Positions 7,604-34,243 of a stretch of 64,000 nucleotides of DNA are shown here, in pieces; the first letter of the stretch is position 1; each line of letters opens with the position of its first letter. The position numbers were made by a program, and so were the translations under genes. This DNA comes from Spirochaetia bacterium. GTDB taxonomy: Bacteria > Spirochaetota > Spirochaetia > WTKD01 > G963693115. The stretch covers positions 416,001 to 480,000 of the forward strand of contig CBDDCA010000006.1 of assembly GCA_965226055.1 (NCBI GenBank), read 5' to 3'. Below the pieces are notes generated by a model that saw only the letters and a program-made list of their open reading frames with translations, did not search any database and was not told the DNA's origin.

Positions 7604-7618
7604 CCCCCCCCCCCCCCC
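7604..7618. repeat. C15 (G15 on gene strand) homopolymer 140 bp upstream of the DUF285 lipoprotein gene
   Basis: 15 consecutive C in AT-rich intergenic DNA. Confidence 0.9.
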
Positions 7619-14513: not shown

Positions 14514-14768
14514 CTATAAGTATTTATCTTTTGTTTTATCTAAGATTTCTTTTTTTGTTATTGTACTGATATTCCTTTCAGCAAAAGCCTCATTTATCGA
14601 TTCATCTAATAGGTATTTACTCTGTTCATAATATTGTGTTTTTACACGCTTTTCTATTTTTTCTTCTATTATATCTTGTATTTTTTGCCAACCAATAAAT
14701 CCAAATACTGCAATTCCTACTGACATTGCAGCTAAAATAATATAGAGAGAAAAACTACTGCTACTCAT
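14514..14768 (-). CDS. Small single-TM protein upstream of the ImmA/IrrE peptidase
   Basis: ATG at 14768 overlaps the apbE end; TM helix then charged helix; 84 aa. Confidence 0.6.
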   Translation of the reverse strand: MSSSSFSLYIILAAMSVGIAVFGFIGWQKIQDIIEEKIEKRVKTQYYEQSKYLLDESINEAFAERNISTITKKEILDKTKDKYL

Positions 14769-15873
14769 CCATCGTGTACTCTTTGCTCGCAAGCTCCACA
14801 TTATCTTTTAGCCCCGAACTGACAACAATAGTTTTATTACGAGTAATAAAAATTGCTTCAGCTTCAGGTTGTGCTTCAATAAATGAGTAAGCTTCCTCAA
14901 ACCCCATCACAAACACCGCTGTCGCTAATGCGTCTGCCACAACACTCTTACTATGAACAATAGTCACACTTAACAAAGTATTGCGTGCAGGATACCCTGT
15001 CCGAGGATCCAGTATATGAAAATACTCTTTTCCGTCTACTTCAAAGTAACGCTCATATACCCCACTCGTAACAATAGACATTCCTGCAGTATTGAATATT
15101 TTTAAGACAAGCACATACTCACCAGGAGCATATGGTTTTTGAATACCTATGTTCCATGACTTTCCCTGTTGCTTTTCACCAAAAACAACAATATTTCCTC
15201 CAAAATCTAAGATAGCTGCTGTTACCCCTTGATCTTGCAAGTATGTTTTTACAAGATCAGCCGCATACCCTTTCGCAATAGCCCCTACATCAATACTCTG
15301 TCCCACTCCTAAACGTAATACATTCCCTTCAAGAGACATAGACTGCCAATGTACCTTTGCAAGCTGTAATTGTATTTCATTATCGTCTGGAACAAAGGCC
15401 TCTCCTGAATTAAACCCCCACACATCCACTACAGGACTTATAGTAGGATCAAACGCTCCATTGCTCATCCGTGCTATATCAATACTCACCGCAAGCACCT
15501 CTGCAAGCTCTGCAGGAACAACATAATCACGCATATTACGAATATCTGTATAGTCTACTCCTTTTTCACTCAATGCCTGGCTCATATTTTCTCCACGATA
15601 GAATTGTGCCAGTGCATCTTGAGACTGTCTATTGATGTCTAGTAATACAGTAGAATCATAATCATCACTTGACACCGACATCATTTGCTCTATACTCTTT
15701 ATTGTACGAAAAGACTGTTGAATAAGATTCTGTGTTCCACCCTCTATAAGTTGTATTGACACTACTGTACCTAAAAGAAGCTCTGCGTCACTATAATTAC
15801 TCTTTTGACAAGATAAAATGAATACAGATATAATAAAGATAATAAAGATATTTTTTCTTATTGTAAATCGCAT
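14761..15873 (-). CDS. apbE: FAD:protein FMN transferase ApbE (lipoprotein)
   Basis: Lipobox ILS-C, GAFDPTI, DVGAIAKGYAAD, TSGVYERY, HILDPRTGYP, ADALAT. Confidence 0.95.
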   Translation of the reverse strand: MRFTIRKNIFIIFIISVFILSCQKSNYSDAELLLGTVVSIQLIEGGTQNLIQQSFRTIKSIEQMMSVSSDDYDSTVLLDINRQSQDALAQFYRGENMSQALSEKGVDYTDIRNMRDYVVPAELAEVLAVSIDIARMSNGAFDPTISPVVDVWGFNSGEAFVPDDNEIQLQLAKVHWQSMSLEGNVLRLGVGQSIDVGAIAKGYAADLVKTYLQDQGVTAAILDFGGNIVVFGEKQQGKSWNIGIQKPYAPGEYVLVLKIFNTAGMSIVTSGVYERYFEVDGKEYFHILDPRTGYPARNTLLSVTIVHSKSVVADALATAVFVMGFEEAYSFIEAQPEAEAIFITRNKTIVVSSGLKDNVELASKEYTMDE

Positions 15874-17404: not shown

Positions 17405-20400
17405 CTACGATGAGGGACATGCTACTTTATCAGTTTTATCCTTTGGCCACTGTGATCTTTTGTTGGCCATAGCTGACAATCTGAAAACAAAATTATCTAA
17501 AGCTACTTTACACACTTTCCATGATGATAAATTTTGATCAAATGCAGAAGCACTCTCAAACATTGAATTCATGCCTGTAACGCTACTCAAATCCCAGCTT
17601 CCTATGTCTTGATTAAAGTCACTTGCTTCAAAAAACATATAATTTGTACTAGTTACTCCCTTAACATCCCAATTTCCTATGTCTTGATTAAAAGTCATAC
17701 TACGAAACATTGAATTCATGTTTGTAACGCTACTCACATCCCAGCTTCCTATGTCTTGATTAAAAACTCTTGCGTTATTAAACATAGAAAACATAGTAGT
17801 AACTTCTCCCGTATCCCAATCTCCTATATCTTGATTAAAAGAAGTTGCTAACCAAAACATCTCACCCATATTCATTACATTACTGGTATTCCAGTTTGTA
17901 ATATCTCCATTAAAGGTGCTATCTTTAAAAAATAAACTACTCATATCAGTAATAGCACTGGTATCTATCATGTTGAGGTTGGGGCTATTGGTGTTTTGTC
18001 TGCCTGCTCCTCTTTCTGCAGTGATAATATCTTGCAATGCTTTCTTCGTTGTTGGTCTGTAATAGCTAGCTACTTGTCCTGCTAGTTTCACAAGCCCTGT
18101 CTCTATATTGATAGTTGCAAGTACCTTTTGTCCCGAGTATGCTCCTGAAGAAGTAATCGTACATTCCACTACTCCATAGTTATAGTCAGTTATAGCAGTA
18201 TCATGTATGTTTGATTTATTTGCTGTGCCTGTTATTGTTATTGTATTGGTATTTTTTGCAAATGTTACTGTTAAGCCTGTTTCTTCTTTGAGTGTGCTGT
18301 CATCTAAGGTGCTTTCATCACAGGTAAAGGTAAGTCCGCTAGGACTGATACTGGTAAGTACTCTCGTTGTATTTTGTGCAAGTGCTGTGCCTACTGTTGC
18401 TGATACCTTTGTGGCATTTCCTATCGCTACTGCTGGGGTGCTAGCAGATACTGCTGTTGCTTCTGCTGATACTTTTGTCTTTTTGAGGCTGTTTACTGCT
18501 ACTGCGGTGATATAGTACTTTGTATTCAATCGTAGGTTGCTTATTGTATAGCTTGTTGCTCCTGTTGGCACATCGTCTTTTTCTGCTCCTTCTTGTGCAT
18601 CGCTTGCTCCTTGTGCCTGTGTTTTTACTGTTGCTCCATCTATGTTTGTTTTTGAGGCTGCGTAGTATACTATATAGTCTATTTGATTATCTCTTAAATC
18701 AGTTCCTTCTGCTGTCGTTCCTTTTACGGTTGGGGCTGTTATGGTAAGTACTATAGTAGCTCCTTGTGCATTTGCTTGTATGGTGGGCTTTCCTGGTGCG
18801 GCATAGGCTTCTTTTGCGATAAACTCCTTGCGTAGTCCTGTTGCTTCTTTGCTGGTATCGGTGCTGTTTACTGCTTGCACTACTATTTCGTAAGTTGTGC
18901 CTACTGTCAATCCTGTCAGAGTGCTATTGGTTGTGCCTGCTGCTACTGTTGTGGAACTTCCTGCTGCTGTTTTTATTTGTGCTACTGTCCTTGTTGTACT
19001 GCCACTTTTGGCTACTTTGTATACTTTGTACGATACTTGTGCGGCTGTTAGGGTGTCTCCTTTGTTTGTTTTGTGGCTTGCATTGAGGCTGGGGGCTGTC
19101 CACGATATTGTTGCACTCCCTCCTGTTACTCCTCCTACTTGTATGTTGCTTACTTCTGCGGGAGCTGTCGCTTGTGATGCGGTTGTTACACTTGCCACTG
19201 TCGATACTGCTTTTTTGCTTGTGTCTGTTTTTACTGCTACTTCTACCACAAAGTGATACTTTGTTGCTCCTTTTATTGCTACTACTGGTGCTGTTTCGCT
19301 AGACAAACCTAAACTGCTAAGGGCTGATACTGTGTACACTCCGCTACTTGCTGTGCCTATGTTTACTTTTCTGCCTCTTTGTACTTCTGCTACTGTAGGG
19401 GTTGTGTCTTTCTGTAAGCCGTACACTGTGTATACTAGCTCATCATTGCTTGTTACTGTTGTGCCATCTTTGTTTTTTGCTCCTGTTATTGTGCTTAACT
19501 GTGTGAGTACGAGCTTTATTGTTCCTACTGTGTTTGTTGAGGGTGATACTACCAGCTTGCCTGTTAAGGACGATGTAGGGGCTGTTGCTTTTGAGGTGGG
19601 GATAGTGCTTAATTCTAGTTTTTGTATCAGTGAGGGATCTTTACTTTGTGCTTTCTTTGTTGCATAGGGATTGAGGCTGTTTATTGCTTCTATGCCTATG
19701 GTGTACACTGCTCCCTTTGTTCCTATAAATGTTCCTCGTAAGCTGCTGTTTCCTGCTATCTCTTGCGTTTGTACTCCTCCCATTGCTTTTATTTCTGCTA
19801 TGCTTTTAGTACTCTGGTCTCCTGCTACTATGTATACTTTGTACTGTATTTGTGCCTGTGTGAGTTGTCTGTCATTGGGTGCTTTGTGCTTACTGGTAAT
19901 TGTTCCTTTTTGAAACTCATACTGTACTGTATCGCTTGTTTGTGTTGATGTTTCGATAAACAGAGTGAGATTCTCTGGTGCGGGTGGGACAGTGGATACT
20001 GCATCATATACTGCTACTTTATCAGTGAGCGTTGTTGGGGGACTTACTCTGTTATTTTCTACTGTGAGAAAGGTAAAGCTATAGCTTTTTGCATTTGCTT
20101 GTGTTGAGGATACTTCTACGCCATCTGCTATACCAAAGCTAATGGTGGTAGCTGTACTTGTTATGCTCTTTTCTGCTACCAAGTTTGTGCCATCTAACAT
20201 ACGCAGGGTGTAGTATCGCCCTATGCCTGGAGCTTGCTTAAATGTTGCTTTTATTTGTATTGCTCCTGTACTTGTGTCTAGGGCAGGCTTGCTTTGAAAG
20301 AGATCTTCTGAGGGAGCTGTGAGTGAGTTGGGGGTGGTTATGTCTTTTGTTGCTTGGGTGCTTTTGTTTCCTGAGTAATCATAAGTCAGTATTGTTATGG

Positions 20401-22115
20401 TGTATGTTTTGCCTTGCGTGAGTTCTTCAACAGAGAGTGATGTTGTGGGATAAGCTACTTTTTTCTCATTTACTACTGCAGTACTTGTGCCTTTCTCTGC
20501 TATGCTTATGCTGTATTCTTTTATGTCTTTGTTATTGGCTTTTGTTACATCGGGGGCTGTCCATGTTATCTGTGTGCCTATCTTTGCTGCTGATACAAAA
20601 GGATAGCTTGCTTGTATGTTTGTCACTGCATCGGGGGCGGTGCTATCGTCTGCGGTGGTTACTATGGCTGTTGCCTCTGTTCCTTTGTTGCCTGCACTGT
20701 CCATTGATACGACTGCCACTGTATACTCGGTAGTGGCTTTGAGGCCTGGTATTTGTGTGTTGCGTACTGCTCTCTCTGTTATTGTCACTGTCTTTGCTGC
20801 TGTTGTGCTATCCTTTTCTGTTGCTGTTATAGTCACTCCTGCATAGTCTCGTACATCGGGGGCTTGCCAACCTACTACTATGCTTGTTGCTCCTCCTACT
20901 ACACTTACATTGGTCGCGGGCTTTGTTGTTTTGTCTGTTGTTGCTTGTTCTTTTGACACTGCAGTGGAGTACTTTCCGTTTTTAAAAACATACACTTCTA
21001 CTTTGTACGTAAGCGTGCCATAGAGTTTTGTGAGTGCTATGCCATCTTTTGCTACATACACAGTAGCATATTCTTTGTTTTGTGCTGTTGCACTGCTGAG
21101 TGTTGCAGTACTGCTATTGTTCACAGTTTCCTCTGCTACTACTGTATTTGTTGCTTTTTCTGTGACTCGTACTAAAAGACTTTTGTCTGTAAAAGTAAAG
21201 CTCCCCCACTTGATAAGCAGGCTCTCATCGGCTGGGCTATTGCTTTTATCGTTTGCTGTTACTGTAAGGTCTGCCTCTGGCAGTGGCGTTACTGTTTGTG
21301 AAAGCTGGGATACTTGCACACCTGTCAGTACTGTTGCGGGACCGCTTGTGTTATCATTTCTGTCTTTGTAGCGTATTTCTACATCATAGGATATGCCTGC
21401 AAGCGTGGAGACATTTGAAAGTATAACTTCTCCTTGCTGTAGGTTCTGCACGGTAGCTTGCGCAAGCACTATGCCACCAGTCGTGCTTTTTACCACTATT
21501 GTGGCTTCGGCTATGTCTGTCTTGCCTAGTGCAAGTCGCTCTTTGTCCCATGTTATCTTTATACCATCTCCCGACTTCTCTACTCCTACCTGTGTCAATG
21601 TGTCCTGTGGTGCAGTAGTATCTATCAGTGTTGTAACAGAGCGTGTTGTTTTTGGTGATACTTCTGTGTCTTTTTGTGCCTCTATCTCTACAGTGTAGTC
21701 GGTGAGTGCTTGTAAGCCTTTGAGTTGGTACGATTGTCCTTGTTGAAAGAGTGTTTGATATTCTATTGCAGGAACACGCACTTGTATAGACTGTGCTGGT
21801 GCAGTTGATGTAGCTTTTACGACTACATGCGTGGCTTCGCTGGGAGCTTCCCAGCGTAACGAGAGTGTCCCATCGTTGCTTGCTACTTGTATCTGCACAT
21901 TGGACACTGATGCGAGTGTCGGGGTTACTGGCGTTCCCCCTCCGCCTGATGAGGAACTGCTACTGCCCTCCGAACATCCTACGAGTACGAGGGTAGTCAT
22001 TGCTAACACTAAAAATAATGCTACTAGAGTTATGTTTTGCTTATATCGAGAGTGTACCCCCCCCCCCGATTTTTTTCACGCTGTGTAATTCCTTACTCAA
22101 CCATATTTTTCTCAT
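17405..22115 (-). CDS. Large surface lipoprotein copy 1 (FN3-like stalk, DUF285 tip), frameshifted at a G11 tract; open frame 17405..22009
   Basis: SD AAGGAG then ATG 22115; G11 leads to an early TAA, G10 joins the 1534-aa ORF; lipobox LVG-C; FN3 motifs ([27 protein letters not shown]); FNQDIGxWD repeats. Confidence 0.88.
22057..22067. repeat. G11 tract in signal-peptide coding region of copy 1
   Basis: 11 C on the + strand between the upstream ATG and the lipobox. Confidence 0.9.
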
Positions 22116-22326
22116 AATGATCTCCTTTATTGTATTATCGTGTACTTATCAGCATACACAATAGTTATTGTAGTACATATTATAATTTTTGTTATTTCCA
22201 TAATAGCACAATTACTATTGTATAGAAATTCTTATAATATAATATACTAAATATATACTCGCTAGTGTACGATACATATGAACAGTGTACCGTTACACTA
22301 TTGAAAAAACGAAAAGGAGTTACTGT

Positions 22327-24228
22327 ATGTCTCTAAAAAAAATATTGGAAGCATTTACCTTAGACAAGGAAATAGTTGATATATTACAAGCAAGCCCTGA
22401 ACTATTATTTGTAAAATCAAAGAGAGAAATTATTGAAAAAATTTTTGAAGGCAACACTAAAGATAAAGTAGATGTAACATTTGATATAGGAAATGGAAAA
22501 TCGTATAAAGAAATCAGTGTTGTTCGCTGTAAAAATGGACTCTCTGTTAATTTTTATGATACCTATATGAGACGCAGAGATCCAAATGCAATGGTTATTG
22601 CTGATAATAATCCAACGAATAAAAAAACATACAAAGAAATATTTTCAAAAGATTTTTCTGTTACAAGAAAAGAAACATTTGATTGGTTAAAGAAACAAAA
22701 ATTATATGTAGTACCATTTTATTCAGGCACCAAAGAAGCAGGATACCTTTCGCTTGCTCTTGTGCCAAAAGATGCTGCTTTTTTTGCCCTCACTTTAGGC
22801 GATCTTCAAGGCTTTGTTCCTATACAAAAATTACCTGCAGAAAACAAAGCTCCCAGAGGAATAATATTTGTTGCTCCTCCATTTAGACATACACACTTTG
22901 AAGGAAAACAAGTGGTAGTACATAACCGAAAAGAAAAAACTCATGAAGTATTTTCTTACAATCTTTATCCCGGACCAAGTGCTAAAAAAGGAGTGTACAG
23001 TATACTACTCAACATAGGAGAAACTGCAGAAGAAAAATGGACAACGCTTCACTGTTCAACAGTAAAAGTGGTAACTCCATATGAATGTGAAATAGTCATT
23101 ATGCATGAAGGAGCATCAGGCGGAGGAAAAACAGAAATGACACAAGATGCCCATACAAAAAAAGGAAATCTTTTACTTGCACGTAATCCCGATAACCATG
23201 ATAGTACTGTTCTCAGCATGAACGATACTTGTACCCTTTATCCGCTTACTGATGATATGGGACTTGTACACCCTTCAAAAAATAAAGGAAGCAAGCTAGT
23301 GGTTGAAGATGCTGAAAACGCATGGTTCTTACGAGTAGATCATCTTAAAAGCTATGGCACAGATATTATTTTAGAAAGTCTATGTATATCTCCTCCTGAA
23401 CCACTGGTATTTCTTAACATTGACGGAAAAGCTGGAGCAACTGCATTATTATGGGAACATACGCTTGATGCTCCTGATAAACCTTGCCCTAACCCAAGAG
23501 TAGTTGTTCCTAGGAAAGATATTCCTAACATTATAAATAAACCTCTTGAAGTAGATATTCGCAGCTTTGGTGTACGCACACCTCGCTGCACAAAAGAAAA
23601 TCCTACCTATGGTATAGTTGGTATGCTTCATATATTGCCACCTCCACTTGCTTGGCTATGGCGATTAGTAGCTCCACGTGGACACTCTAATCCTAGTATT
23701 ATTTCTGCAGGAAAAGGACTTGCAAGTGAAGGGGTAGGATCTTACTGGCCATTTGCTACAGGAACAAGAGTAGAACAGGCAAATATTTTGCTTCATCAAA
23801 TACAAGAAACCCCTGATACAAAATTTGTACTCATCCCCAACCAATTCATAGGAGCTTACTATGTAGGATTTAGTGCACAATGGACATCACGAGAAATTCT
23901 TGCGAGAAGAGGAGGAGTCAACTATAAACAACATCAGCTTATCCCTGCTCGTTGTAGTTTGCTAGGGTATACCCCAACAACACTTCGCTTTAGTAATACT
24001 CCAATTCCACGAGGACTCTTACGAGTAGATGAACAAGCAGAAGTAGGACAAACAGCATACAATGAAGGAAGTGATCAGATAATAGCTTTCTTTAAGGAAC
24101 AGTTAGATCTCTATTTACAAGATAATGCGTTAGATCCACTAGGAAGAATGATTATTGAAATGTGCCTCCGTGATGCTTCACTTGAAGACTATAATTCTTT
24201 CTCAGAGCGTTTCTTTCATAAAAATTAG
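22327..24228 (+). CDS. DUF4914 family protein (PEPCK-like P-loop)
   Basis: YMRRRDP, YNLYPGPSAKKGVY, HEGASGGGK, SEGVGSYWPF; SD AAGGAG before ATG 22327. Confidence 0.85.
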   Translation: MSLKKILEAFTLDKEIVDILQASPELLFVKSKREIIEKIFEGNTKDKVDVTFDIGNGKSYKEISVVRCKNGLSVNFYDTYMRRRDPNAMVIADNNPTNKKTYKEIFSKDFSVTRKETFDWLKKQKLYVVPFYSGTKEAGYLSLALVPKDAAFFALTLGDLQGFVPIQKLPAENKAPRGIIFVAPPFRHTHFEGKQVVVHNRKEKTHEVFSYNLYPGPSAKKGVYSILLNIGETAEEKWTTLHCSTVKVVTPYECEIVIMHEGASGGGKTEMTQDAHTKKGNLLLARNPDNHDSTVLSMNDTCTLYPLTDDMGLVHPSKNKGSKLVVEDAENAWFLRVDHLKSYGTDIILESLCISPPEPLVFLNIDGKAGATALLWEHTLDAPDKPCPNPRVVVPRKDIPNIINKPLEVDIRSFGVRTPRCTKENPTYGIVGMLHILPPPLAWLWRLVAPRGHSNPSIISAGKGLASEGVGSYWPFATGTRVEQANILLHQIQETPDTKFVLIPNQFIGAYYVGFSAQWTSREILARRGGVNYKQHQLIPARCSLLGYTPTTLRFSNTPIPRGLLRVDEQAEVGQTAYNEGSDQIIAFFKEQLDLYLQDNALDPLGRMIIEMCLRDASLEDYNSFSERFFHKN

Positions 24229-24270
24229 AGGTAACATATACTATTAAAAATCATATAATATACATATACA

Positions 24271-24308
24271 CAGAAATTGACATTAGTATTAACTAAAGTC
24301 AATTTCTG
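24271..24308 (+). terminator. Stem-loop after DUF4914 gene
   Basis: cagaaattgac...gtcaatttctg inverted repeat. Confidence 0.55.
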
Positions 24309-24364
24309 GCATCAGATTATTATAGACACAATACTACTTAGCTGCACATGGCTTAAAGGTAATT

Positions 24365-25774
24365 ATGTATAGTATAGGGCTTGATATTGGCACTAGCAAT
24401 CTCTCCGTTGTGCTTATAGACAAAGACAGCACTATTATCACTACAAAAAGTGTTAAAAATGACAGTACAGTAAAAGGAAAGCATTTTGAAGCATTACAAG
24501 ATCCTTTCTCTATATTTCTTACAGCACAAACACTTATTGATACAATACTACAAAGCGTTGATGTCAGTACATTACATGGTATAGGAATATCTAATCAGAT
24601 GCACGGTATAGTATATGTTGATACAACAATCAATGCACTCAGCCCATTGTATACATGGCAAGATAAACGAGGAGATGAAGCATATAATCAAGACTACTCT
24701 TTCTCTGAGTATGTGCATATCCATACTGGGTTTCAAGTACCAACAGGATATGGATTGCTTACACATTTTTATAACATACAAAAAAAATTAGTACCTTCCA
24801 ATACCGCATGCATACTGGATATAGGGAGCTTTATTGCTGCAAAATTAGTAACATCGCATTTACACACTGATAGCCTTGCTAGTACAAACTCTAACATAAA
24901 CCCTAACACAAATCATAGTTCTCTTCCATTTTTAATACATACAAGTAATGCACATGCGTGGGGATTTTTTGATATTGTAACACAAAATTTTAATCAAAAT
25001 GCTTTACATACATTAGGCATAGACACTGCCATCATTCCAAGCATATGTAATGATCCTATGCCAGTGGGAGCATACAAAAATATTACTGTGTATCCTGCAC
25101 TTGGAGATAATCAAGCTGGAGTACTAGGAAGCATAGGAACAAATACAGAGGCAGTACTGATTAACATTGGTACCTCTGCACAATTATCCTTTATTGATAG
25201 TAGCATTCCTCTCTTTTCTGATACACATACATGGGAGATGCGCCCTTTCATACAAGATACAATACTCTATGTTGCTAGTAGCCTCTGCGGAGGAAAAACA
25301 TTAGATATTTGGACCTACTTTATTGCACATGCTATACATACTATTCAAGATAGTACCGATACAATAGAAAATATACAAAAAACAGTCTATACATTTCTTT
25401 CATCGCTTAGCCATAATACACAAGAGAAAGAACATCAAAAAATAAAAACTGACCTTACAGTTACTCCCTATTTTTATGGTACAAGAAATACCCCTAAGGC
25501 TCGTGCTGCAATTACTGATATTTCTCCTGACAATTTTAATATACATACAATGAGTAAGGCAATGATGCAAGGAATAACAGATGAATTACTTGCGTTTTGG
25601 AACAAAGTACCTCCATCTATTCAAAATAACAAACACAAACTGTTTCTCACTGGTAAAAGTACTACTATTCCTTTTCTCCAACAGCAGCTCAAAAAAGCAT
25701 TCTCTCCCTTACAATTATGTTTGCTAGCATCTACAGAATATAGTGCTATAGGAGCAGCAATGTGGACTCAATAA
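24365..25774 (+). CDS. Sedoheptulokinase-like FGGY carbohydrate kinase
   Basis: IGLDIGTS, NQMHG, TWQDKR, TGYGLLT, LGDNQA, NIGTSAQLS, ASSLCGG. Confidence 0.85.
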   Translation: MYSIGLDIGTSNLSVVLIDKDSTIITTKSVKNDSTVKGKHFEALQDPFSIFLTAQTLIDTILQSVDVSTLHGIGISNQMHGIVYVDTTINALSPLYTWQDKRGDEAYNQDYSFSEYVHIHTGFQVPTGYGLLTHFYNIQKKLVPSNTACILDIGSFIAAKLVTSHLHTDSLASTNSNINPNTNHSSLPFLIHTSNAHAWGFFDIVTQNFNQNALHTLGIDTAIIPSICNDPMPVGAYKNITVYPALGDNQAGVLGSIGTNTEAVLINIGTSAQLSFIDSSIPLFSDTHTWEMRPFIQDTILYVASSLCGGKTLDIWTYFIAHAIHTIQDSTDTIENIQKTVYTFLSSLSHNTQEKEHQKIKTDLTVTPYFYGTRNTPKARAAITDISPDNFNIHTMSKAMMQGITDELLAFWNKVPPSIQNNKHKLFLTGKSTTIPFLQQQLKKAFSPLQLCLLASTEYSAIGAAMWTQ

Positions 25775-25851
25775 ATTACATACCTATGTATGGTTATCAT
25801 CGCTATGAGAATATCCATTATCATGCATATGGTAAGGATGTGTCATTATAA

Positions 25852-27282
25852 CTAATACGCTTTTGCATACACTACCATATGTTTTGCTTCTTTTCCACTA
25901 AATATACAAGTACTTCCTACAGGAGGTTTCTGTGGCAACACAATCCGAATAGTGCTTTTCGTTTCATTTTTTATTGCCGTTTCTGTCTCTTGCAAACCGT
26001 CCCAAGGAGCTATGATATACCCAGAAATCTCTTGCTGTAACTGTTGTTTCATTTCATCAAAGTCTGTGATAGTATGAGTATGCTGTTCCCTAAATTGTAA
26101 TGCATGTTGATATAGTCTTTTTTGAATAGTATGCAACAGAGACTCTATTTCTTTTTCTGCTGAGGCAACAGGCACTTGTATTTTCTCTCCTGTATCTCTT
26201 GCTACAAGCGTAAGTACTTTATTTTCTATATCACGAGGACCTAACTCAATACGTATAGGAACACCACGCAATTCCCATTCAGCAAATTTCCATCCAGGTT
26301 TCTGTTCATAATTTCTATCTAATTCTACCCTAAACTGACCAGATAACATATCTCTCAGTTTTGTTGCTTCCTGTATCACCATGCTTTTAGAGTCACTTTT
26401 ATAGATAGGTACAATAACCACCTCATCAGGAGCAATACGAGGAGGAAGAATAAGCCCTTTTTTATCAGAATGTGTCATAATAATAGCTCCAATAAGACGA
26501 GTAGAAACTCCCCACGATGTTGCCCATACATATTCTAGCTCCAAGTGCTCATTTTGAAACTGTACATCAAACGCTTTCGCAAAATTTTGCCCTAAAAAAT
26601 GAGAAGTACCTGCTTGCAATGATTTTCCATCCTGCAATAACGTTTCAATAGCATAGGTAGCAACAGCTCCAGCAAACTTTTCTTTTTCGGTTTTCACTCC
26701 ATCAATCACTGGCAATGCTAGTTCATTCTTTGCAAAATCTTTATAAATTTCCAATATAGTGAGCGTTTCCTCTTCTGCTTCTTGTTGTGTTTGATGAGCA
26801 GTATGACCTTCTTGCCATAAAAATTCAGTGGTACGCAAAAAAAGACGAGTCCGTTTTTCCCAACGAATAACATTTGCCCACTGATTGATAAGCAAAGGTA
26901 AATCACGATACGATTGTATCCATTTTTTGTACATGCTCCAGATAATAGTTTCAGAAGTAGGACGAAGCACAAGCGGTTGTTCCAGTGTTTCTCCTCCTCC
27001 ATGTGTCACTACTGCTAATTCAGGAGAAAATCCTTCAACATGTTCTTTTTCCTTAGAGATAAAACTCTGTGGTATCAGTAATGGAAAATAAGCATTTTTA
27101 TGCCCTGTTTTTTTTAATCGTACATCTAATGCCTGTTGCATATTTTCCCATACTGCATACCCACGTGGACGTATTACCATGCACCCTTTTACAGGACTAT
27201 AATCCGCTAACTCAGCTTTCGTAACTAAATCTACATACCACTCAGAAAAATGATCTTCTTTTACACTTACCGTTTCTGCCAT
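25852..27282 (-). CDS. proS: Proline--tRNA ligase (archaeal/eukaryote type)
   Basis: FSEWY, RPTSET, FLRTTEFLWQEGHT, SWGVSTR, C-terminal AKAY; ATG 27282 preferred. Confidence 0.97.
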   Translation of the reverse strand: MAETVSVKEDHFSEWYVDLVTKAELADYSPVKGCMVIRPRGYAVWENMQQALDVRLKKTGHKNAYFPLLIPQSFISKEKEHVEGFSPELAVVTHGGGETLEQPLVLRPTSETIIWSMYKKWIQSYRDLPLLINQWANVIRWEKRTRLFLRTTEFLWQEGHTAHQTQQEAEEETLTILEIYKDFAKNELALPVIDGVKTEKEKFAGAVATYAIETLLQDGKSLQAGTSHFLGQNFAKAFDVQFQNEHLELEYVWATSWGVSTRLIGAIIMTHSDKKGLILPPRIAPDEVVIVPIYKSDSKSMVIQEATKLRDMLSGQFRVELDRNYEQKPGWKFAEWELRGVPIRIELGPRDIENKVLTLVARDTGEKIQVPVASAEKEIESLLHTIQKRLYQHALQFREQHTHTITDFDEMKQQLQQEISGYIIAPWDGLQETETAIKNETKSTIRIVLPQKPPVGSTCIFSGKEAKHMVVYAKAY

Positions 27283-27384
27283 ACATTTATTATACTCTAT
27301 ACAGAACTTTACATACAAATAGTACAAGAGATAAGAAATATGCTATCCAGAAAATATATAACTACTAATACTCTTACTATAAGG

Positions 27385-27833
27385 TTACTTCAATCTCTCA
27401 CCACTAAATTCAGTATATGGAGACTTTACTTTTTGTTTATTAATTTCAATAGTAGACGGCAATCTTGATATAGCCATTGCTCCTCTTTCTATTCTTTGAA
27501 TAGTTATTTGTTCTTTATTCTCTTTATATATGTCAGAAAAAGCACCTCCTGTTTTCCTAGTTCCTAATGGTGTTAATAAAATGATACTTTTTTCTGTGTA
27601 CTCAATAATATACCGCATTATTGGAATAAAATCCGTATCATTACTCACTAACACAATTTTTTCTATTTCTTTTTCATTTTTCTTACAAATATCATGCACT
27701 ACCTGTATTCCAATAGCAACATCTGTTTCTTTCTCTTCATATCCCTCAGCGATAAATCATACTGATTTTCTTTTAAGAATCTTACAAGAGAATGATATAC
27801 ATTAAGTCCATCAATATACACAAAAGTATTCAT
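27385..27833 (-). pseudogene. NYN/LabA (PIN-like) domain pseudogene with internal deletion and frameshift
   Basis: ATG 27833 gives MNTFVYIDGLNVYH; a different frame continues EEKETDVAIG...LVSNDTDFIP; the middle of the domain is missing. Confidence 0.8.
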
Positions 27834-27860
27834 AAAAAAAACCTATCCATATAGGATAGG
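27834..27860 (-). terminator. Terminator-like hairpin plus T8 directly before the NYN start codon
   Basis: Minus strand CCTATCC-TATAT-GGATAGG-TTTTTTTT-ATG. Confidence 0.6.
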
Positions 27861-27990
27861 CATGTGATGACTTAAAGTTGTATAGATATATCTATCTAAA
27901 ATAAATTACACAGACATCCTAAAACAACGCATCTGGCTATAATCTATTATTGTAAATTTTGTAAAAAAAGTCAAGTACTTTTTTAAGTTA

Positions 27991-29228
27991 TGTAACGAAA
28001 ACCTGAAAATGTCACCTTCTTAAAAAAGCTGAAAATGTCACTTATGATGTATGTATGAAACACATTATTATGAGTGACAAAGAACTTTTATATGAAAAAG
28101 TATGTATTGCATACCACAAAGGAAACATCCCTGTTTCTCGTGCTGCTCAACAGGCTTCCATCAGTATTCGCCATATGCATCGTATCTATAAAAAATGGCT
28201 TGCAGGAGGGACTCCTTCCCTCTGTCATGCTTCTCGTGGATCTCAGGGCAGAACTCAATACGACCCTGCTACAAAACAACATATCCTTTTTCTTTTTCAT
28301 ACACAACTCTCCAATCATACCATCTCTCATGCTGTAGCCGTACTCAAACATCAGTTTTCTCTCTTTGTTTCTGCTCCTACCCTTCGTAAGTGGCTTGGTA
28401 TCCCTCAACAATCCCAAAGAACTCCTGTGAAACGAAAAAAACGCCCTCGTATGTCTCATTTCGGTCACATGCTTCAATGTGATAGCAGTTTTCACCAGTG
28501 GTTTGGCTCTCAGCATCCTCCTTGTTGTCTCATTGCCCTTATTGATGATGCCTCCAGTACCATCCTCCTTCGCTTTGCAGAACAAGAATTTATCCGTGAT
28601 GTCCTGCTTTTACTTAAACAATGGTGTACTTCTTATGGTATTCCTGCCTCTTTGTACTGTGATAGACGCAATGCTTATGTTCCTGCCCCTGATCTTTCCC
28701 GTCATATTCCTCAAGTCTGTCAACGTCTGGGAGTCGATTTGATTAATGCTCATTCTCCTCAGGCGAAAGGCAGAGTAGAACGACTGTTCCGTACCCTCCA
28801 GTCTCGTCTTTGTGCTGAACTCTCTCGTCATGCTATTCATTCTATCTCTCACGCTAATGCTTTCCTGCCTTTTTTTATCAAACAACACAATACAGAATTT
28901 GCTCTTCCTCTTGACGCTCTTCCTTCTGCTCATGTCCCTCTTGTTGATGCTGCTTCTCTTGATACTCCTTTTGCTTACCATACTACTCGTGTCCTCAGAA
29001 ATGACTGGACTATTTCTTTTCGTGGTACTGCTTTGCAGATTGTTCCTCCTCCTCATTCTGTTGCTCTTCGTCCTCGCAAAGCTCTCTCTTGCCATATTCA
29101 TTTAGATGATTCTCTTCATTTATTCTATAATGGCTATAGTATCAATTTTACGGAGATCCCTTCATCTTATGCCTATCAGTGACATTTTCGGCTTTCCTTT
29201 TTTGTGACATTTTCAGGTTTTCGTTACA
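27991..29228 (+). mobile_element. Complete 1238-bp IS, IS1202 family (former ISNCY; ISTde1-like), 16-bp target-site duplication
   Basis: Perfect 25-bp IRs TGTAACGAAAACCTGAAAATGTCAC; second internal copy of the ctgaaaatgtcac motif at each end; direct repeat gtacttttttaagtta at 27975-27990 and 29229-29244. Confidence 0.92.
28055..29182 (+). CDS. DDE transposase (IS1202/IS481-related)
   Basis: N-terminal HTH; QCDSS, IDDAS, YCDR, SPQAKGRVERLFRTLQSRL. Confidence 0.93.
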   Translation: MKHIIMSDKELLYEKVCIAYHKGNIPVSRAAQQASISIRHMHRIYKKWLAGGTPSLCHASRGSQGRTQYDPATKQHILFLFHTQLSNHTISHAVAVLKHQFSLFVSAPTLRKWLGIPQQSQRTPVKRKKRPRMSHFGHMLQCDSSFHQWFGSQHPPCCLIALIDDASSTILLRFAEQEFIRDVLLLLKQWCTSYGIPASLYCDRRNAYVPAPDLSRHIPQVCQRLGVDLINAHSPQAKGRVERLFRTLQSRLCAELSRHAIHSISHANAFLPFFIKQHNTEFALPLDALPSAHVPLVDAASLDTPFAYHTTRVLRNDWTISFRGTALQIVPPPHSVALRPRKALSCHIHLDDSLHLFYNGYSINFTEIPSSYAYQ

Positions 29229-29278
29229 GTACTTTTTTAAGTTATTTGTACTTTTACCATCTGGTGTGAACCCCAAAA

Positions 29279-29306
29279 TCCATGATAGTAATTATACTAT
29301 CATGGA
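29279..29306 (-). terminator. Stem-loop downstream of lipoprotein copy 2
   Basis: 12-bp inverted repeat tccatgatagta/tactatcatgga with 4-nt loop. Confidence 0.55.
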
Positions 29307-29387
29307 AATAATAAATAAAAATAAAAAAATACAGGCATATGATTCCTTCTCAGCGTATATCTATTATTAGCTTTGCTTATGCTCCTA

Positions 29388-32300
29388 CTATGTGCTACAC
29401 TGTGGAGATCCCTTAAATTTTGGGTGTTTGTTTGAAACTCCTGCTAAAGGTGAGAATATAAACATAGAATTAATATCAGATTTATCTGGTTTAAATTTAC
29501 ATATCCTCCACGATGATAAATCTTGATTAAATACAGTGGCACCAGTAAACATCCTGGATGGATTAGTAACACTTCCGACATTCCACCCACTTATATTTTG
29601 ATTAAACTTTTGAGCTCCAGAAAACATATCTGCCATATTAGTAACCTTACTTACATCCCAACCTCCTATGTTTTTATTAAAGGCGTCTGCTGCTATAAAC
29701 ATAGTAGACATATCCGTTACATTACTGGTATTCCACTGTGTTATGTCTCCATTAAAAGTACTATCATCATTGAATAAATCACTCATATCAGTAATGGCAC
29801 TGGTATCTATCATGTTGAGGTTGGGGCTAGGGTTACTGTTCTCTCCTGAACCTTGCCTTGTTTTTTCTGCAGTGATAATATCTTGCAGTGCTTTCTTCGT
29901 TGTTGGTCTGTAATAGTTAGCTGATTGCCCTGCTAGTTTCACAAGCCCTGTCTCTACATTGATAGTTGCAAGTGCCTTTTGTCCCGAGTATGCTCCCGCA
30001 GAAGTAATGGTACACTCCACTACCTCATAGTTATACTCAGTTATAGCAGTATCATGTATGTTTGATTTATTTGCTGTGCCTGTTATTGTTACTGTATTGG
30101 TATTTTTTGCAAATGTTACTGTTAGACCTGTTTCTTCTTTGAGTGTGCTGTCATCTAAGGTGCTTTCATCACAGGTAAATGATAGTCCACTAGGACTGAT
30201 ACTGGTAAGTACTCTCGTTGTATTTTGTGCGAGTGCTGTGCCTACTGTTGCTGATACCTTTGTGGCGTTTCCTATCGCTACTGCTGGCGTACTGGCAGAT
30301 ACTGCTGTTGCTTCTGCTGATACCTTTGTGGCGTTTCCTATCGCTACTGCTGGCGTACTGGCAGATACTGCTGTTGCTTCTGCTGATACCTTTGTCTTTT
30401 TGAGGCTGTTTACTGCTACTGCGGTGATATAGTACTTTGTATTCAATCGTAGGTTGCGTATTGTATAGCTTGTTGCTCCTGTTGGTACATCGTCTTTTTC
30501 TGCTCCTTCTTGTGCATCGCTTGCTGCTTTTGCTTGCGTTTTTACTGTTGCTCCATCTATGTTTGTTTTTGAGGCTGCATAGTATACTATATAGTCTATT
30601 TGATTATCTCTTAAATCAGTCGTTCCATCTTCTGTCGTTCCTTTCACGGTTGGGACTGTTATGGTAAGTACTATGGTTGCTCCTTGTGCATTTGCTTGTA
30701 TGGTGGGCTTTCCTGGTGCGGCATAGGCTTCTTTTGCGATAAACTCCTTGCGTAGTCCTGTTGCTTCTTTGTTGGTATCGGTGCTGTTTACTGCTTGTAC
30801 TACTATTTCGTAAGTTGTGCCTACTGTCAATCCTGTCAGAGTGCTGTTGGTTGTACCTGCTGCTACTGCTGTGGAGCTTCCTGCTGCTGTTTTTATTTGT
30901 GCTACTGTCCTTGTTGTACTGCCACTTTTGGCTACTTTGTATACTTTGTACGATACTTGTGCTACTGTTAGGGTGTCTCCTTTGTTTGTTTTGTGGCTTG
31001 CATTGAGGCTGGGGGCTGTCCACGATATTGTTGCACTTCCTCCTGTTACTCCTCCTACTTGTATGTTGCTTACTTCTGCGGGGACAGTCGCTTGTGATGC
31101 GGTTGTTACACTTGCCACTGTCGATACTGCTTTTTTGCTTGTGTCTGTTTTTACTGCTACTTCTACCACAAAATGATACTTTGTTGCTCCTTTTATTGCT
31201 ACTACTGGTGCTGTTTCGCTAGACAAACCTAAACTGCTAAGGGCTGATACTGTGTACACTCCGCTACTTGCTGTGCCTATGTTTACTTTTCTGCCTCTTT
31301 GTACTTCTGCTACTGTAGGGGTTGTGTCTTTCTGTAAGCCGTACACTGTGTATACTAGCTCATCATTGCTTGTTACTGTTGTGCCATCTTTGTTTTTTGC
31401 TCCTGTTATTGTGCTTAACTGCGTGAGTACTAGCTTTATTGTTCCTGTCGTGTTTGTTGAGGGTGATACTACCAGCTTGCCTGTTAAGGACGATGTAGGG
31501 GCTGTTGCTTTTGAGGTGGGGATAGTGCTTAATTCTAGTTTTTGTATCAGTGCAGGGTCCTTGCTTTGTGCTTTCTTTGTTGCATAGGGATTGAGGCTGT
31601 TTATTGCTTCTATGCCTATGGTGTATACTGCTCCTTTTGTTCCTATAAATGTTCCTCGTAAGCTGCTGTTTCCTGCTATCTCTTGCGTTTGTACTCCTCC
31701 CATTGCTTTTATTTCCGCTATGCTTTTAGTACTCTGGTCTCCTGCTACTATGTATACTTTGTACTGTATGTTTGCTTGTGTGAGTTGTCTGTCATTGGGT
31801 GCTTTGTGCTTACTGGTAATTGTTCCTTTTTGAAACTCGTACTGTACGGTATCGCTTGTTTGTGTTGATGTTTCAATAAACAGTGATAGGCTTTCTGGTG
31901 CTGGAGGGACAGTGGATACTGCATCATATACTGCTACTTTATCAGTGAGCGTTGTTGGGGGGCTTACTCTGTTATTCTCTACTGTAAGAAAGGTAAAGCT
32001 ATAGCTTTTTGCATTTGCTTGCGTTGAGGATACTTCTATGCCATCTGCTATGCCAAAGCTAATGGTGGTTGCTGTTCTTGTTATGCTTTTTTCTGCTACC
32101 AAGTTTGTGCCATCTAACATACGCAGGGTGTAGTATCTTCCTATGCCTGGAGCTTGCTTAAAGCTTACTTTTATTTGTATTGCTCCTGTTGTTGTAACTA
32201 GGGTAGGCTTGTTTTGAAAGAGATCTTCTGAGGGAGCTATGGGTGAGTTGGGTGTGGTTATGTCTTTTATGGCTTGGGTGCTTTTGTTTTCTGAGTAATC

Positions 32301-34051
32301 ATAGGTGAGTATTGTTACGGTATATGTTTTGCCTTGCGTGAGTTCTTCTACAGAGAGTGACTTTGTGGGATAGGGTATTTTCTTTTCGCTCAGTACTGCA
32401 GTACTTGTGCCTTTCTCTGCTATGCTTACACTGTATTCTTTTATGTCTTTGTTATTGGCTTTTGTTGTATCAGGAGCTGTCCATGTTATCTGTGTGCCTA
32501 CCTTCGCTGCTGATACAAAAGGATAGCTTGCTTGTATGTTTGTTACTGCATCGGGGGCGGTGCTATCTGCTGCAGTAGTGACTGTGGCATTTTCTGCTGT
32601 TCCTTTGTTTCCTGCACTGTCCATTGATACGACTGCCACTGTATACTCGGTGGTTGCTTTGAGGCCTGGTATCTGCGTGTTGCGTACTGTTCTCTCTGTT
32701 ATTGTTACTGTCTTTGCTGGGGTACTGCTGTCTTTTTCTGTTGCTGTTATAGTCACTCCTGCGTAGTCTCGTACATCGGGAGCTTGCCAGCCTACTACTA
32801 TGCTTGTTGCTCCTCCTACTGCACTTACATTGGTCGCGGGCTTTGTTGTCTTGTCTGTTGTTGCTTGTTCTTTTGACACTGCAGTGGAGTACTTTCCGTT
32901 TTGAGAAACATATACCTCTACTTTGTAAGTAAGCGTGCCATAAAGTTTTGTGAGGGCTATGCCGTCCTTTGCTACATACACAGTGGCGTACTCTTGATTG
33001 TCTGCACTTGCAGAACTGAGTTTGGCTGTACTGCTATTGTTCACAGTTTCCTCTGCTACTACTGTATTTGTTGCAGTTGCTATAACGCGTACTAAGAGGC
33101 TTTTGTCCGTAAAGGTAACATTTCCCCACTTGATAAGCAGGCTCTCATCGGCTGGGCTATTGCTTTTATCGTTTGCTGTTACTGTAAGGTCTGCCTCTGG
33201 CAGTGGCGTTACTGTTTGTGAAAGCTGTGATGCTTGCACGCCTGTCAATACTGTTGTAGGACTGCTTGTGTTATCATTTCTGTCTTTGTAGCGTATTTCT
33301 ACATCATAGGATATGCCTGCAAGCGTGGAGATCTTTGGAAGTATAACTTCTCCTTGCTGTAGGTTCTGCACGGTAGCTTGTGCAAGCACTATGCCACCAG
33401 TCGTGCTTTTTACCACTATCGTTGCTTCGGCTATATCTGTCTTGCCTAGTGCAAGTCGCTCTTTGTCCCATGTTATCTTTATACCATCCCCCGACTTCTC
33501 TACTCCTACCTGTGTCAATGTGTCCTGTGGTGCAGTAGTATCTATCAGTGTTGTCACGGAGCGTGTTGTTTTTGGTGATACTTCTGTGTCTTTTTGTGCC
33601 TCTATCTCTACGGTGTAGTCGGTGAGTGCTTGTAAGCCTTTGAGTTGGTACGATTGTCCTTGTTGAAAGAGTGTTTGATATTCTATTGCAGGAATACGCA
33701 CTTGTATTGACTGTTCTGATACTATAGATGGTGCGGTAGATGTAGCTTTTACGACTACATGCGTGGCATCACTTGGGGCTTCCCAGCGTAACGAGAGTGT
33801 CCCATCGTTGCTTGCTACTTGTATCTGCACATTGGACACTGATGCGAGTGTCGGGGTTACTGGTGTTCCCCCTCCGCCTGATGAGGAACTGCTACTGCCC
33901 TCCGAACATCCTACGAGTACGAGGATTGCTAGCACTAAAAATAATACTACTAGAGTTATGTTTTGCTTATATCGAGAGTGTACCCCCCCCCGATTTTTTT
34001 CATGCTGTATAGCTCTTTGCTTTTGTAGCTATCGTTTATCCATACTTTCAT
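29388..34051 (-). CDS. Large surface lipoprotein copy 2 (FN3-like stalk, DUF285 tip), frameshifted at a G9 tract; open frame 29388..33935
   Basis: SD AAGGAG then ATG 34051; G9 leads to an early TAA, G10 joins the 1515-aa ORF; lipobox LVG-C; near-identical to copy 1 except the tip. Confidence 0.88.
30249..30395. repeat. Perfect 66-bp in-frame tandem duplication
   Basis: tgctgatacctttgt at 30249, 30315 and 30381; [22 protein letters not shown] occurs twice in copy 2, once in copy 1. Confidence 0.92.
33983..33991. repeat. G9 tract in signal-peptide coding region of copy 2
   Basis: 9 C on the + strand in the same context as the copy 1 tract. Confidence 0.9.
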
Positions 34052-34243
34052 AAATATCTCCTTTTATTTTATTATCGTGTACTTATCAGCATACACAATA
34101 GTATCATAATTATTATAGCACAAAATACTATAATTTTTATCATTTCCATGATAACATAACTCCATACACTGATACACGATTGGAGATACTAACTTTACAA
34201 TATAATAAATATAATAAGTAAAATATGATATACTATATACAGT

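Follow-up and report, generated by a model that had tools for sequence, protein, structure and literature searches.

Probable poly-G translational phase variation in a large family of giant FN3-DUF285 lipoproteins of an uncultured spirochaete

Phase-variable surface repertoires are textbook matter for a few cultured pathogens and for mycoplasmas. In Mycoplasma agalactiae, poly-G tracts in the leaders of PARCEL lipoproteins were noted earlier and, as far as that account goes, the switch was proposed from sequence only (2010, PMC2996958). In Neisseria, Campylobacter and Helicobacter, poly-G tracts within open reading frames give rise to translational phase variation, for instance of meningococcal HmbR and HpuAB (PMC3786947), and a whole phasome has been described for Neisseria (PMC5953494). 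In Treponema pallidum, poly-G tracts are located upstream of the tpr genes and tp0126, in promoters, and act on transcription; their length variation was measured in vivo, and tracts of at most eight G's are permissive in the case of tprE, tprG and tprJ (PMC7864442). Finally, a sortase-dependent pilus of Bifidobacterium breve is under the control of a replication-slippage ON/OFF switch (PMC9187656).

Here, we analysed a 64,000-nt stretch of DNA (the window) from an uncultured spirochaete, the nearest named relatives of which are about 64% identical in ProRS. Homologues of LolA and RodZ are encoded in the window, pointing to a diderm host. We suggest that the logic of the systems above extends to this lineage, and that the probable explanation for the poly-G tracts reported here is a multigene repertoire of surface lipoproteins under translational phase variation of the classical slipped-strand type. 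The mechanism is already known and will not surprise a specialist; what is new is the host and the unusual scale of about three dozen genes. With M. agalactiae, the system shares the DUF285/PARCEL module, the predicted lipoprotein class, the poly-G tract with its N-terminal coding position, and the proposed frameshift phase variation. However, M. agalactiae is a mollicute, while the diderm spirochaete has proteins of about 1,550 aa that include a long FN3 stalk, and about 34 copies of the cassette per genome. The likeness to Neisseria, Campylobacter and Helicobacter consists in a G tract close to the 5' end of an ORF that encodes a surface protein, slippage by one unit in either direction, many independent loci and combinatorial phenotypes. 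Unlike in those genera as described in the cited accounts, the tracts are almost all found in a single family of paralogues sharing one cassette and not in unrelated genes, they are longer (G11-G18 in a related metagenome-assembled genome, MAG), and switching is read from sequence alone. T. pallidum, also a spirochaete, likewise has poly-G tracts linked to a family of paralogues that encode putative surface proteins, but the Tpr beta-barrels are unrelated to FN3-DUF285 lipoproteins. Moreover, the T. pallidum tracts are in promoters, whereas the two main tracts of the window are past the start codon and would act on the reading frame; their position downstream of the ATG sets them apart from the promoter type of T. 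pallidum tpr and Neisseria porA. In B. breve, a non-pathogenic, host-associated bacterium, slippage similarly gates a long surface appendage; however, the protein class and the anchoring are different, and two clusters are involved as opposed to dozens of paralogues.

The two main tracts are in paralogous genes on the minus strand, referred to as copies 1 and 2. Copy 1 (17405..22115) extends from an ATG at 22115, preceded by the Shine-Dalgarno (SD) sequence AAGGAG (22122-22127), to a stop at 17405. A leader ORF of 16 residues (22068..22115) is open between the ATG and a G11 tract (22057..22067), which begins 48 nt downstream of the ATG, and the main ORF has 1,549 codons. Copy 2 (29388..34051) has its ATG at 34051, AAGGAG at 34058-34063, a G9 tract (33983..33991) beginning 60 nt downstream of the ATG, and a main ORF of 1,530 codons ending at the stop at 29388. 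In both copies, an A7 run (22070-22076 and 33994-34000, respectively) and TC are located just 5' of the tract, and the context A7-TC-Gn-TACACTCTCG is identical. The conserved segment following the tract of copy 1 (21974..22056; 28 residues) encodes a hydrophobic core and an L-V-G-C lipobox with its Cys codon at 21974-21976; the corresponding L-V-G-C Cys codon of copy 2 is at 33906-33908. In each gene, a G/C homopolymer of hypermutable length (about eight or more) is therefore present in the 5' coding region, between the SD-preceded ATG and the lipobox. The main ORFs match Pfam fn3 (PF00041; copy 1, E 3.7e-26, 91.6 bits, five stretches; copy 2, E 1.2e-23, 83.6 bits, four stretches) and DUF285 (PF03382; copy 1, E 6.3e-57, 191 bits; copy 2, E 5.3e-37, 126.6 bits), all against a cut-off of 25, as well as the NCBIfam PARCEL repeat TIGR02167 (36.8 and 36.7 bits; cut-off 30). 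An earlier note on this DNA had described two FN3-DUF285 paralogues of about 1,550 aa with these tracts, SD-preceded start codons and a shared context; its coordinates all hold, and Pfam confirms both domains in both ORFs.

As assembled, both copies are OFF. In copy 1 (phase 1), the ATG frame yields a 24-aa peptide, and removal of one G leads to the main ORF; in copy 2 (phase 2), a 31-aa peptide is made from the ATG, and addition of one G leads to the main ORF. Gain or loss of a single unit thus toggles both genes between early stop and full ORF, and because the main ORFs are reached by -1 G and +1 G, respectively, G10 is in frame for both; more generally, lengths of n = 1 mod 3 (10, 13, 16) are in frame in the A7-TC-Gn context. 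The early stops, the restoration of the frame by G10 and the one-slip distance from ON in opposite directions had all been proposed in the earlier note, and frame arithmetic bears them out. That G10 would correspond to ON is supported by this arithmetic and by natural in-frame relatives such as P0049, which has a poly-Gly leader and LVGC. The in-frame reading gives a predicted lipoprotein signal, the features of which were assigned from the sequence without a dedicated predictor: an unusually long K/R-rich n-region (about 28 aa), a hydrophobic core of about 19 residues and L-V-G-C. By contrast, the starts chosen by the ORF finder (GTG 22009 in copy 1 and GTG 33935 in copy 2) are inside the hydrophobic core, 9-11 residues ahead of the Cys, and are devoid of the basic n-region, as had also been pointed out. 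We also considered a downstream start in copy 1, at GTG 22009 or at the ATG nine bases further on, but rejected it because neither an SD sequence nor a basic n-region is present and at most 11 residues precede the Cys.

An alternative to an all-or-none switch is that the nominally OFF alleles yield full-length protein by RNA-polymerase slippage or ribosomal frameshifting on A7-TC-Gn, in which case tract length would tune the amount of protein. In other bacteria, long homopolymers are established sites of slippage, and here the tracts reach a great length (up to G18) and lie next to an A7 run. However, a TAA right after the tract is conserved in both wrong frames, being reached within 4 and 8 codons, and no stimulatory structure is recognisable besides the tract. 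We consider this explanation unlikely as a replacement for DNA-level switching, which it complements and does not exclude; OFF alleles could be leaky if RNA polymerase or ribosomes slip on G9-G18.

The G tracts stand out from their surroundings. The GC content of the window is 35.9%, and only three G/C runs of at least eight are present, the next longest run being seven. For the 9-G pattern, 0.01 occurrences are expected per shuffle (largest count, one in 100 shuffles of the window), and the window contains exactly two occurrences of the 18-nt context AAAAAAATCGGGGGGGGG, which is absent from all of 100 shuffles. Rfam searches of the whole window at the gathering threshold returned two tRNAs only and no match at the poly-G leaders. 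At the DNA level, the family was surveyed in one genome, the related Spirochaetia MAG OZ244590.1 (2,360,799 bp), while other members in the window's own assembly and in an assembly with a 726,939-bp contig are represented by predicted proteins only. The MAG contains 39 family loci, which are scattered around the chromosome and make up roughly 7-8% of the genome (by arithmetic from 39 matches of about 4.6 kb); 34 have a leader tract, with lengths of G11-G18. In 489,648 unique bp sampled from this MAG (about 490 kb), we found 36 G/C runs of at least eight, comprising 34 family leaders, one orthologue of the third tract of the window and one G8 within an unrelated ORF. Thus, 35 of 36 long runs belong to the cassette, and a single protein family dominates the long G-tract content. 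Further G8+ tracts in lipoprotein leaders, for which the earlier note suggested a genome scan, are abundant in this MAG; the two tracts on which that note was based are real, but a pair is too few to describe a family of dozens.

The 34 MAG tracts are spread over all three phases (eight in frame, 12 in phase 1 and 14 in phase 2; chi-square against uniform, p = 0.44), and seven in-frame genes are intact (L001, L005, L009, L020, L028, L032 and L037). Tract length is polymorphic among near-identical alleles and paralogues, differing in 25 of 33 leader pairs with flanks at least 95% identical; for instance, the positional orthologue of copy 1, L008, has G14 in place of G11. Long-read consensus sequences are known to be weak at long runs of G, and it could be argued that every tract is really in frame (e.g. 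a uniform G10 in the window), that the genes are constitutive and that odd lengths are homopolymer miscalls. The assemblies are in long contigs (957,439 and 2,360,799 bp), which is compatible with long reads, and homopolymers of 9-18 are error-prone in such assemblies, so that the length or the ON/OFF state given for any one tract may be mistaken. However, only eight of 36 tracts are in frame, with even use of the three phases; if all were truly in frame, a miscall rate of 20% would give eight or fewer with P of about 1e-13, and miscalling would have to be near-random. Likewise, the G15 tract at an orthologous non-coding position is identical in two independent assemblies, a weak argument with n = 1. 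Moreover, a G run of at least nine in the leaders of dozens of paralogues, against codon usage, is the signature of a mutable switch even if the lengths are wrong. We therefore regard assembly error as an improbable source of the pattern as a whole.

The codon usage of the main ORFs is informative in this respect. GGG accounts for 6 of 99 Gly codons in copy 1 and 6 of 96 in copy 2 (6%); a nearby Ser6-Gly4 stretch is encoded GGC GGA GGG GGA, and no other G run exceeds five. Because GGG is otherwise seldom used for Gly in these genes, the leader homopolymer is apparently selected at the DNA level. The leader is also well conserved, with a mean majority conservation of 93% over the 80 nt following the tract in 35 leaders. 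The family is large and mosaic, with a few leader types shuffled among paralogues, as would be expected if most copies were unexpressed donors feeding a single expression site, or a few such sites, through recombination (gene conversion of the vlsE/tprK type), the G tract being a by-product or a recombination hotspot. A few MAG copies fit this idea: L023 is without -10 motif, SD, leader and signal peptide, and L036 and the second gene of L024 are truncated. Yet all 33 tract-bearing copies examined have their own SD-ATG, most of these retain the conserved -10-like motif and the full coding sequence of the signal peptide, and the dispersed loci do not cluster beside one expression site, making a silent archive very unlikely.

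The OFF copies are largely intact. Among those listed, 23 of 24 keep an ORF of at least 1,420 codons, with frameshifts limited to the tract. dN/dS is 0.355 for copy 1 versus L008, both of which are OFF, and 0.31 for copy 1 versus copy 2; overall values are 0.3-0.36, and those for the stalk are 0.18-0.35. These values support that OFF copies are under purifying selection and not decaying. Although 26 of 34 copies in the MAG and both copies in the window are out of frame as assembled, it is hardly credible that they are dead remnants of a family expansion, because decay would predict dN/dS of about 1 and scattered stops, the opposite of what is seen. The contingency system proposed in the earlier note is thus supported by 34 paralogues over three phases, the existence of in-frame versions, intact and constrained OFF copies and the rarity of GGG.

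Differences between paralogues are concentrated in the C-terminal head. In 50-aa blocks, copies 1 and 2 are 84-100% identical at alignment positions 51-1200 and 16-74% identical from about position 1350 onward. An AlphaFold2 model of the last 327 aa has a mean pLDDT of 76.7, with values above 90 for about residues 140-327. Foldseek searches of this model against the PDB gave no matches at E ≤0.001, and the weak top matches (E 0.03-0.3, TM about 0.2) were all LRR proteins; a PDB sequence search with the same 327 aa gave no matches. A conserved stalk and a variable head suggest where ligand or immune pressure acts, and a role as adhesin may be envisaged from the FN3 and DUF285 domains.

In the model that we suggest, each gene would be an independent transcription unit for a giant surface protein of about 1,550 codons, lipid-anchored at its N-terminus and composed of a conserved FN3-type stalk (about 1,200 aa) with a variable DUF285/PARCEL repeat head at the tip. 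A ribosome starting at the SD-preceded ATG would have to cross A7-TC-Gn, translated as K-K-I-Gly(n/3), to reach the codons for the hydrophobic core and for the L-V-G-C lipobox. During replication, the G tract would gain or lose G's by slipped-strand mispairing. In two of the three length classes, a TAA 4-8 codons past the tract would prevent synthesis of the precursor (OFF); in the third, the full prolipoprotein would be made, exported and lipidated (ON). Because each paralogue has its own tract, the combination of heads that a population expresses on the shared stalk would keep shifting. Slippage in vivo, its consequence for export and lipidation, surface exposure, and a function in binding or antigenic variation are predictions of this model. 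Tract-length spectra in metagenomic reads would give a direct in-situ readout of the switching of the surface coat.

The same leader is visible in protein databases. Among 67 family proteins, eight have a poly-Gly n-region, 31 are called from a start within the hydrophobic core, and 25 have a complete leader without a G4 run. Part of the family is therefore not switched by poly-G. Gene callers mis-start or truncate family genes and, because 31 of the 67 entries begin inside the signal peptide, annotation pipelines hide the lipoprotein nature of the family. In distant relatives (37-46% identity), P0194 and the Kelch-FN3 protein P0068 have Gly4-5 in the lipoprotein n-region, while P0193 starts inside the hydrophobic core; the feature is thus old.

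Upstream of copy 1, a candidate -10 element, TACAAT (22167-22172, in the region 22136..22172), aligns with the family-wide TGCTATAAT/TACTATAAT motif, and copy 2 has the extended -10-like TGCTATAAT at 34112-34120. Scans for sigma-70 consensus sites around the three tracts gave 4, 3 and 4 sites versus 2.6, 1.6 and 2.2 in shuffles and were not above expectation; therefore, the promoter assignment rests on the family-conserved TGCTATAAT-like motif, for which a -10 role is putative. Between the candidate -10 and the SD of copy 1, a 10-bp 5'-UTR hairpin (22136-22163; z = -3.84) has compensatory changes in four of six consensus pairs. Taking these elements together, we tentatively propose, as a reading with somewhat less than an even chance of being right in full, that about 40 giant lipoproteins with FN3 stalk and PARCEL head are mostly gated by one portable cassette (extended -10, 5' hairpin, SD-leader, A7-TC-Gn, core and lipobox). 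More than 30 independently flipping genes might then build a stochastic, combinatorial coat. The cassette would also have been grafted onto other architectures, as in P0068, and would survive as an upstream G15 before a different PARCEL lipoprotein, while variable poly-T tracts upstream of many promoters might add a second, transcriptional layer of switching.

This third tract of the window (G15; 7604..7618, minus strand) is 140 nt upstream of the SD-ATG at 7464, within a degenerate version of the leader cassette described above, and has an orthologous G15 in the related MAG. The gene behind it (5296-7464, minus strand) encodes a 722-aa DUF285/PARCEL lipoprotein that differs from copies 1 and 2. 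The tract is outside the reading frame of this gene and is the only one in the window in a non-coding upstream position.

The two FN3-DUF285 lipoprotein paralogues on the minus strand, copy 1 (17405..22115) and copy 2 (29388..34051), each carry a long G tract in the leader, G11 at 22057-22067 and G9 at 33983-33991, respectively. The 18-nt context A7-TC-G9+ is identical at both tracts; the window has exactly these two occurrences, and 100 shuffles gave none. Upstream of each tract is an ATG preceded by a Shine-Dalgarno (SD) sequence (copy 1, ATG 22115 and AAGGAG 22122-22127; copy 2, ATG 34051 and AAGGAG 34058-34063). Downstream, a conserved segment codes for a 12-residue stretch, a hydrophobic core and L-V-G-C. 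As assembled, the frames opened by these ATGs stop after 24 codons in copy 1 and 31 codons in copy 2, and the long ORFs after the tracts (1,549 and 1,530 codons) are brought into frame by the loss of one G in copy 1 and the gain of one G in copy 2. The ORF-finder starts of both copies are inside the hydrophobic core. Both main ORFs match fn3 and DUF285 well over the Pfam cut-offs and contain PARCEL repeats (NCBIfam). In the window, which has a GC content of 35.9%, only three G/C runs reach at least 8 nt, the next longest is 7, and the expectation for a nine-G word is 0.01 per shuffle. With this scarcity of runs and with frames, contexts and domains all as described in the earlier note, its observation is confirmed in every detail: all coordinates were recovered, translation as assembled ends early, the two copies are one slip from ON in opposite directions, and the ORF-track starts leave out the basic n-region.

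The same note had interpreted the tracts as a contingency system of two genes. The contingency interpretation is supported, while the two-gene scope is too narrow and has to be widened to a genome-wide family. A protein search gave 72 matches, of which 67 are close paralogues with 47-100% identity. These 67 come from a handful of assemblies, with longest contigs of 2,360,799, 957,439 (that of the window) and 726,939 bp, and from four shorter contigs; 31 of them have their start within the hydrophobic core (MLAI..LVGC or MTTLVLVGC), eight have the n-region K-K-I/S-Gly4-5-VHSRYKQ and three lack the lipobox. A scan of genome contigs with a 45-sequence family alignment as query found 39 loci, all on one chromosome, OZ244590.1 ("MAG: Spirochaetia bacterium"), around which the copies are dispersed. 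These loci have 34 leader tracts, 31 heading the matched gene and three heading a second family gene (L012, L014 and L024). The tracts range from G11 to G18, are all on the coding strand and are followed by TACACTCTCG in almost all cases. In all 34, the distance from an upstream SD-preceded ATG to the tract is 33-72 nt, and the frame of this ATG is open up to the tract. Eight of the 34 tracts are in frame with the long ORF. Seven of these genes have an intact ORF (L001, L005, L009, L020, L028, L032 and L037); the remaining one, which is the second gene of L024, has an ORF that breaks after 76 codons. The out-of-frame tracts comprise 12 of phase 1, the class of copy 1, and 14 of phase 2, the class of copy 2, and the phases of all 34 show no significant departure from uniformity (chi-square p = 0.44). 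The 489,648 unique bases of the MAG loci contain 36 G/C runs of at least 8 nt, namely the 34 family leaders, one orthologue of a third long tract of the window and one G8 in an unrelated ORF. Members lacking a long G run, i.e. the 25/67 database proteins with a complete leader devoid of a Gly run and the 8/39 MAG loci with a matched gene of this type (a quarter to a third), would escape this switching.

Several independent lines argue for a switch and against noise or decay. First, no other part of the cassette, which is otherwise conserved, varies as much as the tract: mean majority conservation in the 80 nt after the tract is 93% (35 leaders), and the number of Gs differs in 25 of 33 leader pairs with flanks at least 95% identical. 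Second, OFF copies are maintained, with an ORF of at least 1,420 codons kept in 23 of the 24 OFF MAG copies compared. Copy 1 and the MAG locus L008, which share flanks of 93-95% nucleotide identity, are both OFF (G11 vs G14). Their overall dN/dS is 0.355, with 0.30 for the stalk and 0.56 for the head; between copies 1 and 2, dN/dS is 0.31 overall. Third, the protein itself does not need a homopolymer: among the Gly codons of the main ORFs, 6/99 (copy 1) and 6/96 (copy 2) are GGG, the neighbouring Ser6-Gly4 is coded GGC GGA GGG GGA, and other G runs are at most 5 long. Fourth, both wrong frames meet a conserved TAA, 4 and 8 codons past the tract. Finally, the poly-Gly/G-tract leader is an old feature, in that relatives with 37-46% identity have Gly4-5 in the n-region (database proteins P0194 and P0068) or a hydrophobic-core start (P0193).

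Based on these sequence comparisons, we consider it likely that the G tracts exert slipped-strand ON/OFF control of these genes. Such a switch would be translational and of the classical type, with tract length setting the reading frame, and transcriptional or ribosomal slippage could make its OFF alleles leaky. Alternatively, the G9-G18 lengths can be wrong in the assemblies; near-random miscalling would still fit the data, but with every tract actually in frame and a miscall rate of 20%, the probability of at most 8/36 in frame would be ~1e-13, and the non-coding G15 (the third long tract) is, in a single observation, identical in both assemblies.

The A run before TC-Gn also varies among the MAG copies (A6 in L003, L028 and L037; A4 in L010, L021 and L031; A8 in the second gene of L024). 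Its length shifts the in-frame G lengths: A6 copies are ON at G14 and G17, while A7 copies need 10, 13 or 16. Some MAG copies are damaged. At L023:3900-3990, a deletion has removed the -10 motif, SD, leader and signal peptide, so that the upstream poly-T region directly adjoins the Ser-Gly linker. Truncation has left L036 with 742-756 codons, and the second gene of L024 (L024:8560 onward) has the broken ORF described above.

Slipped-strand switching of this kind is already known; what is notable here is the scale and the single portable cassette. The closest precedent is the poly-G in PARCEL lipoprotein leaders of Mycoplasma agalactiae described by Roske et al. (PMC2996958), where contingency loci flanking PARCEL lipoprotein genes in M. 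capricolum are also described. Poly-G tracts also precede tpr genes and tp0126 in Treponema pallidum, where they are reported to vary in vivo and to act on transcription (PMC7864442); they thus differ from those of copies 1 and 2 in position and mode. The literature retrieved on DUF285 together with phase variation concerned mycoplasmas or PARCEL throughout, and no title among the best-ranked matches dealt with an FN3-DUF285 family or with Spirochaetia other than Treponema, which is no proof of absence. Thus, the switch would be of a known kind, to which this family is newly added. When the first 400 residues were searched against 1.84 billion representatives, only 15 clusters were found at E ≤0.001 and four at ≤1e-30, and the family is thus restricted to its lineage. 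In P0068 (1,450 aa) and P0194 (2,558 aa), the poly-Gly n-region directly precedes a lipoprotein-type hydrophobic core, and one of the two has Kelch-type Pfam domains together with fn3. This suggests that the cassette is modular and moves between surface-protein architectures.

With gaps counted, overall identity between copies 1 and 2 is 85%. In 50-aa blocks, identity is 84-100% at alignment positions 51-1200 and drops to 16-74% in the DUF285 head, from about position 1350 on; across 45 family members, conservation is lowest at residues ~1100-1200, where indels occur, and at 1450-1500. The last 327 residues were modelled with AlphaFold2 from a 38-row alignment; the model has a mean pLDDT of 76.7, with values >90 for residues ~140-327 and poor values before residue ~140. 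Foldseek gave no PDB match to this model at E ≤0.001, and the best, weak matches (E 0.03-0.3, TM ~0.2) are all leucine-rich-repeat (LRR) proteins. Because these matches are weak and a sequence search of the PDB with the head found nothing, an LRR-like solenoid is plausible but not established. An N-terminal lipid anchor would place the head at the far end of the FN3 stalk, and this architecture of anchor, stalk and head suggests a possible adhesin role.

A conserved TGCTATAAT/TACTATAAT motif lies ~60-75 nt before the ATG in most of 33 tract-bearing genes compared, as a -10-like TACAAT in copy 1 (22167-22172, minus strand) and as TGCTATAAT in copy 2 (34112-34120, minus strand). Generic promoter scans around the tracts gave no more sites than the shuffled expectation, and the motif is, thus, a putative promoter element. 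Between it and the SD is an inverted repeat, which in copy 1 forms a 10-bp hairpin (22136-22163, minus strand; z = -3.84), has its equivalent in copy 2 (~34076-34105, minus strand) and is also present in 31 MAG loci. In a 33-sequence family alignment, compensatory changes occur at four of the six consensus pairs of the hairpin, which might serve as an operator or stabilise the 5' end as a stem. Each copy appears to form a transcription unit of its own. Many MAG copies (L019, L028, L030, L033, L036, L037 and others) have a poly-T run of ~T7 to T17 about 45 nt upstream of the -10-like motif and ~100-125 nt upstream of the ATG, which both window copies lack. This run may be a further slippage-prone element, acting on transcription.

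The third long tract of the window, G15 (7604-7618, minus strand), is 140 nt upstream of the SD-ATG of a gene (5296-7464) for a 722-aa lipoprotein with five DUF285 stretches and a He_PIG Ig-like domain. Its length might affect transcription as in T. pallidum. The surrounding DNA resembles a degenerate family leader (ATGATACAT... start, then stop), and the MAG equivalent, L038:10195-10209, is also G15, in DNA 82% identical. About 150 bp beyond the copy 2 stop codon is an ISNCY-family transposase gene (28055-29182; NCBIfam 269.9 bits), flanked by 31-nt terminal inverted repeats (27985-28015 and 29204-29234, 94% complementary; element 27985-29234). Near copy 1, two small minus-strand ORFs between conserved housekeeping flanks, with weak matches to an spr1629-type repressor/antitoxin (14012-14506) and a phage-integrase SAM-like N-terminal domain (14514-14801), may be a mobile-element remnant. 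The window also codes for LolA- and RodZ-like proteins, TRAP and ABC sugar transporters, LacZ and glucosylglycerate-related enzymes, and its sole Rfam matches at the gathering threshold are two plus-strand tRNA genes (63063-63135 and 63179-63252). Its ProRS is 88% identical to one entry and at most ~64-65% identical to named Spirochaetia (e.g. Alkalispirochaeta), which, together with the title of the MAG, places the window in an uncultured Spirochaetia lineage.
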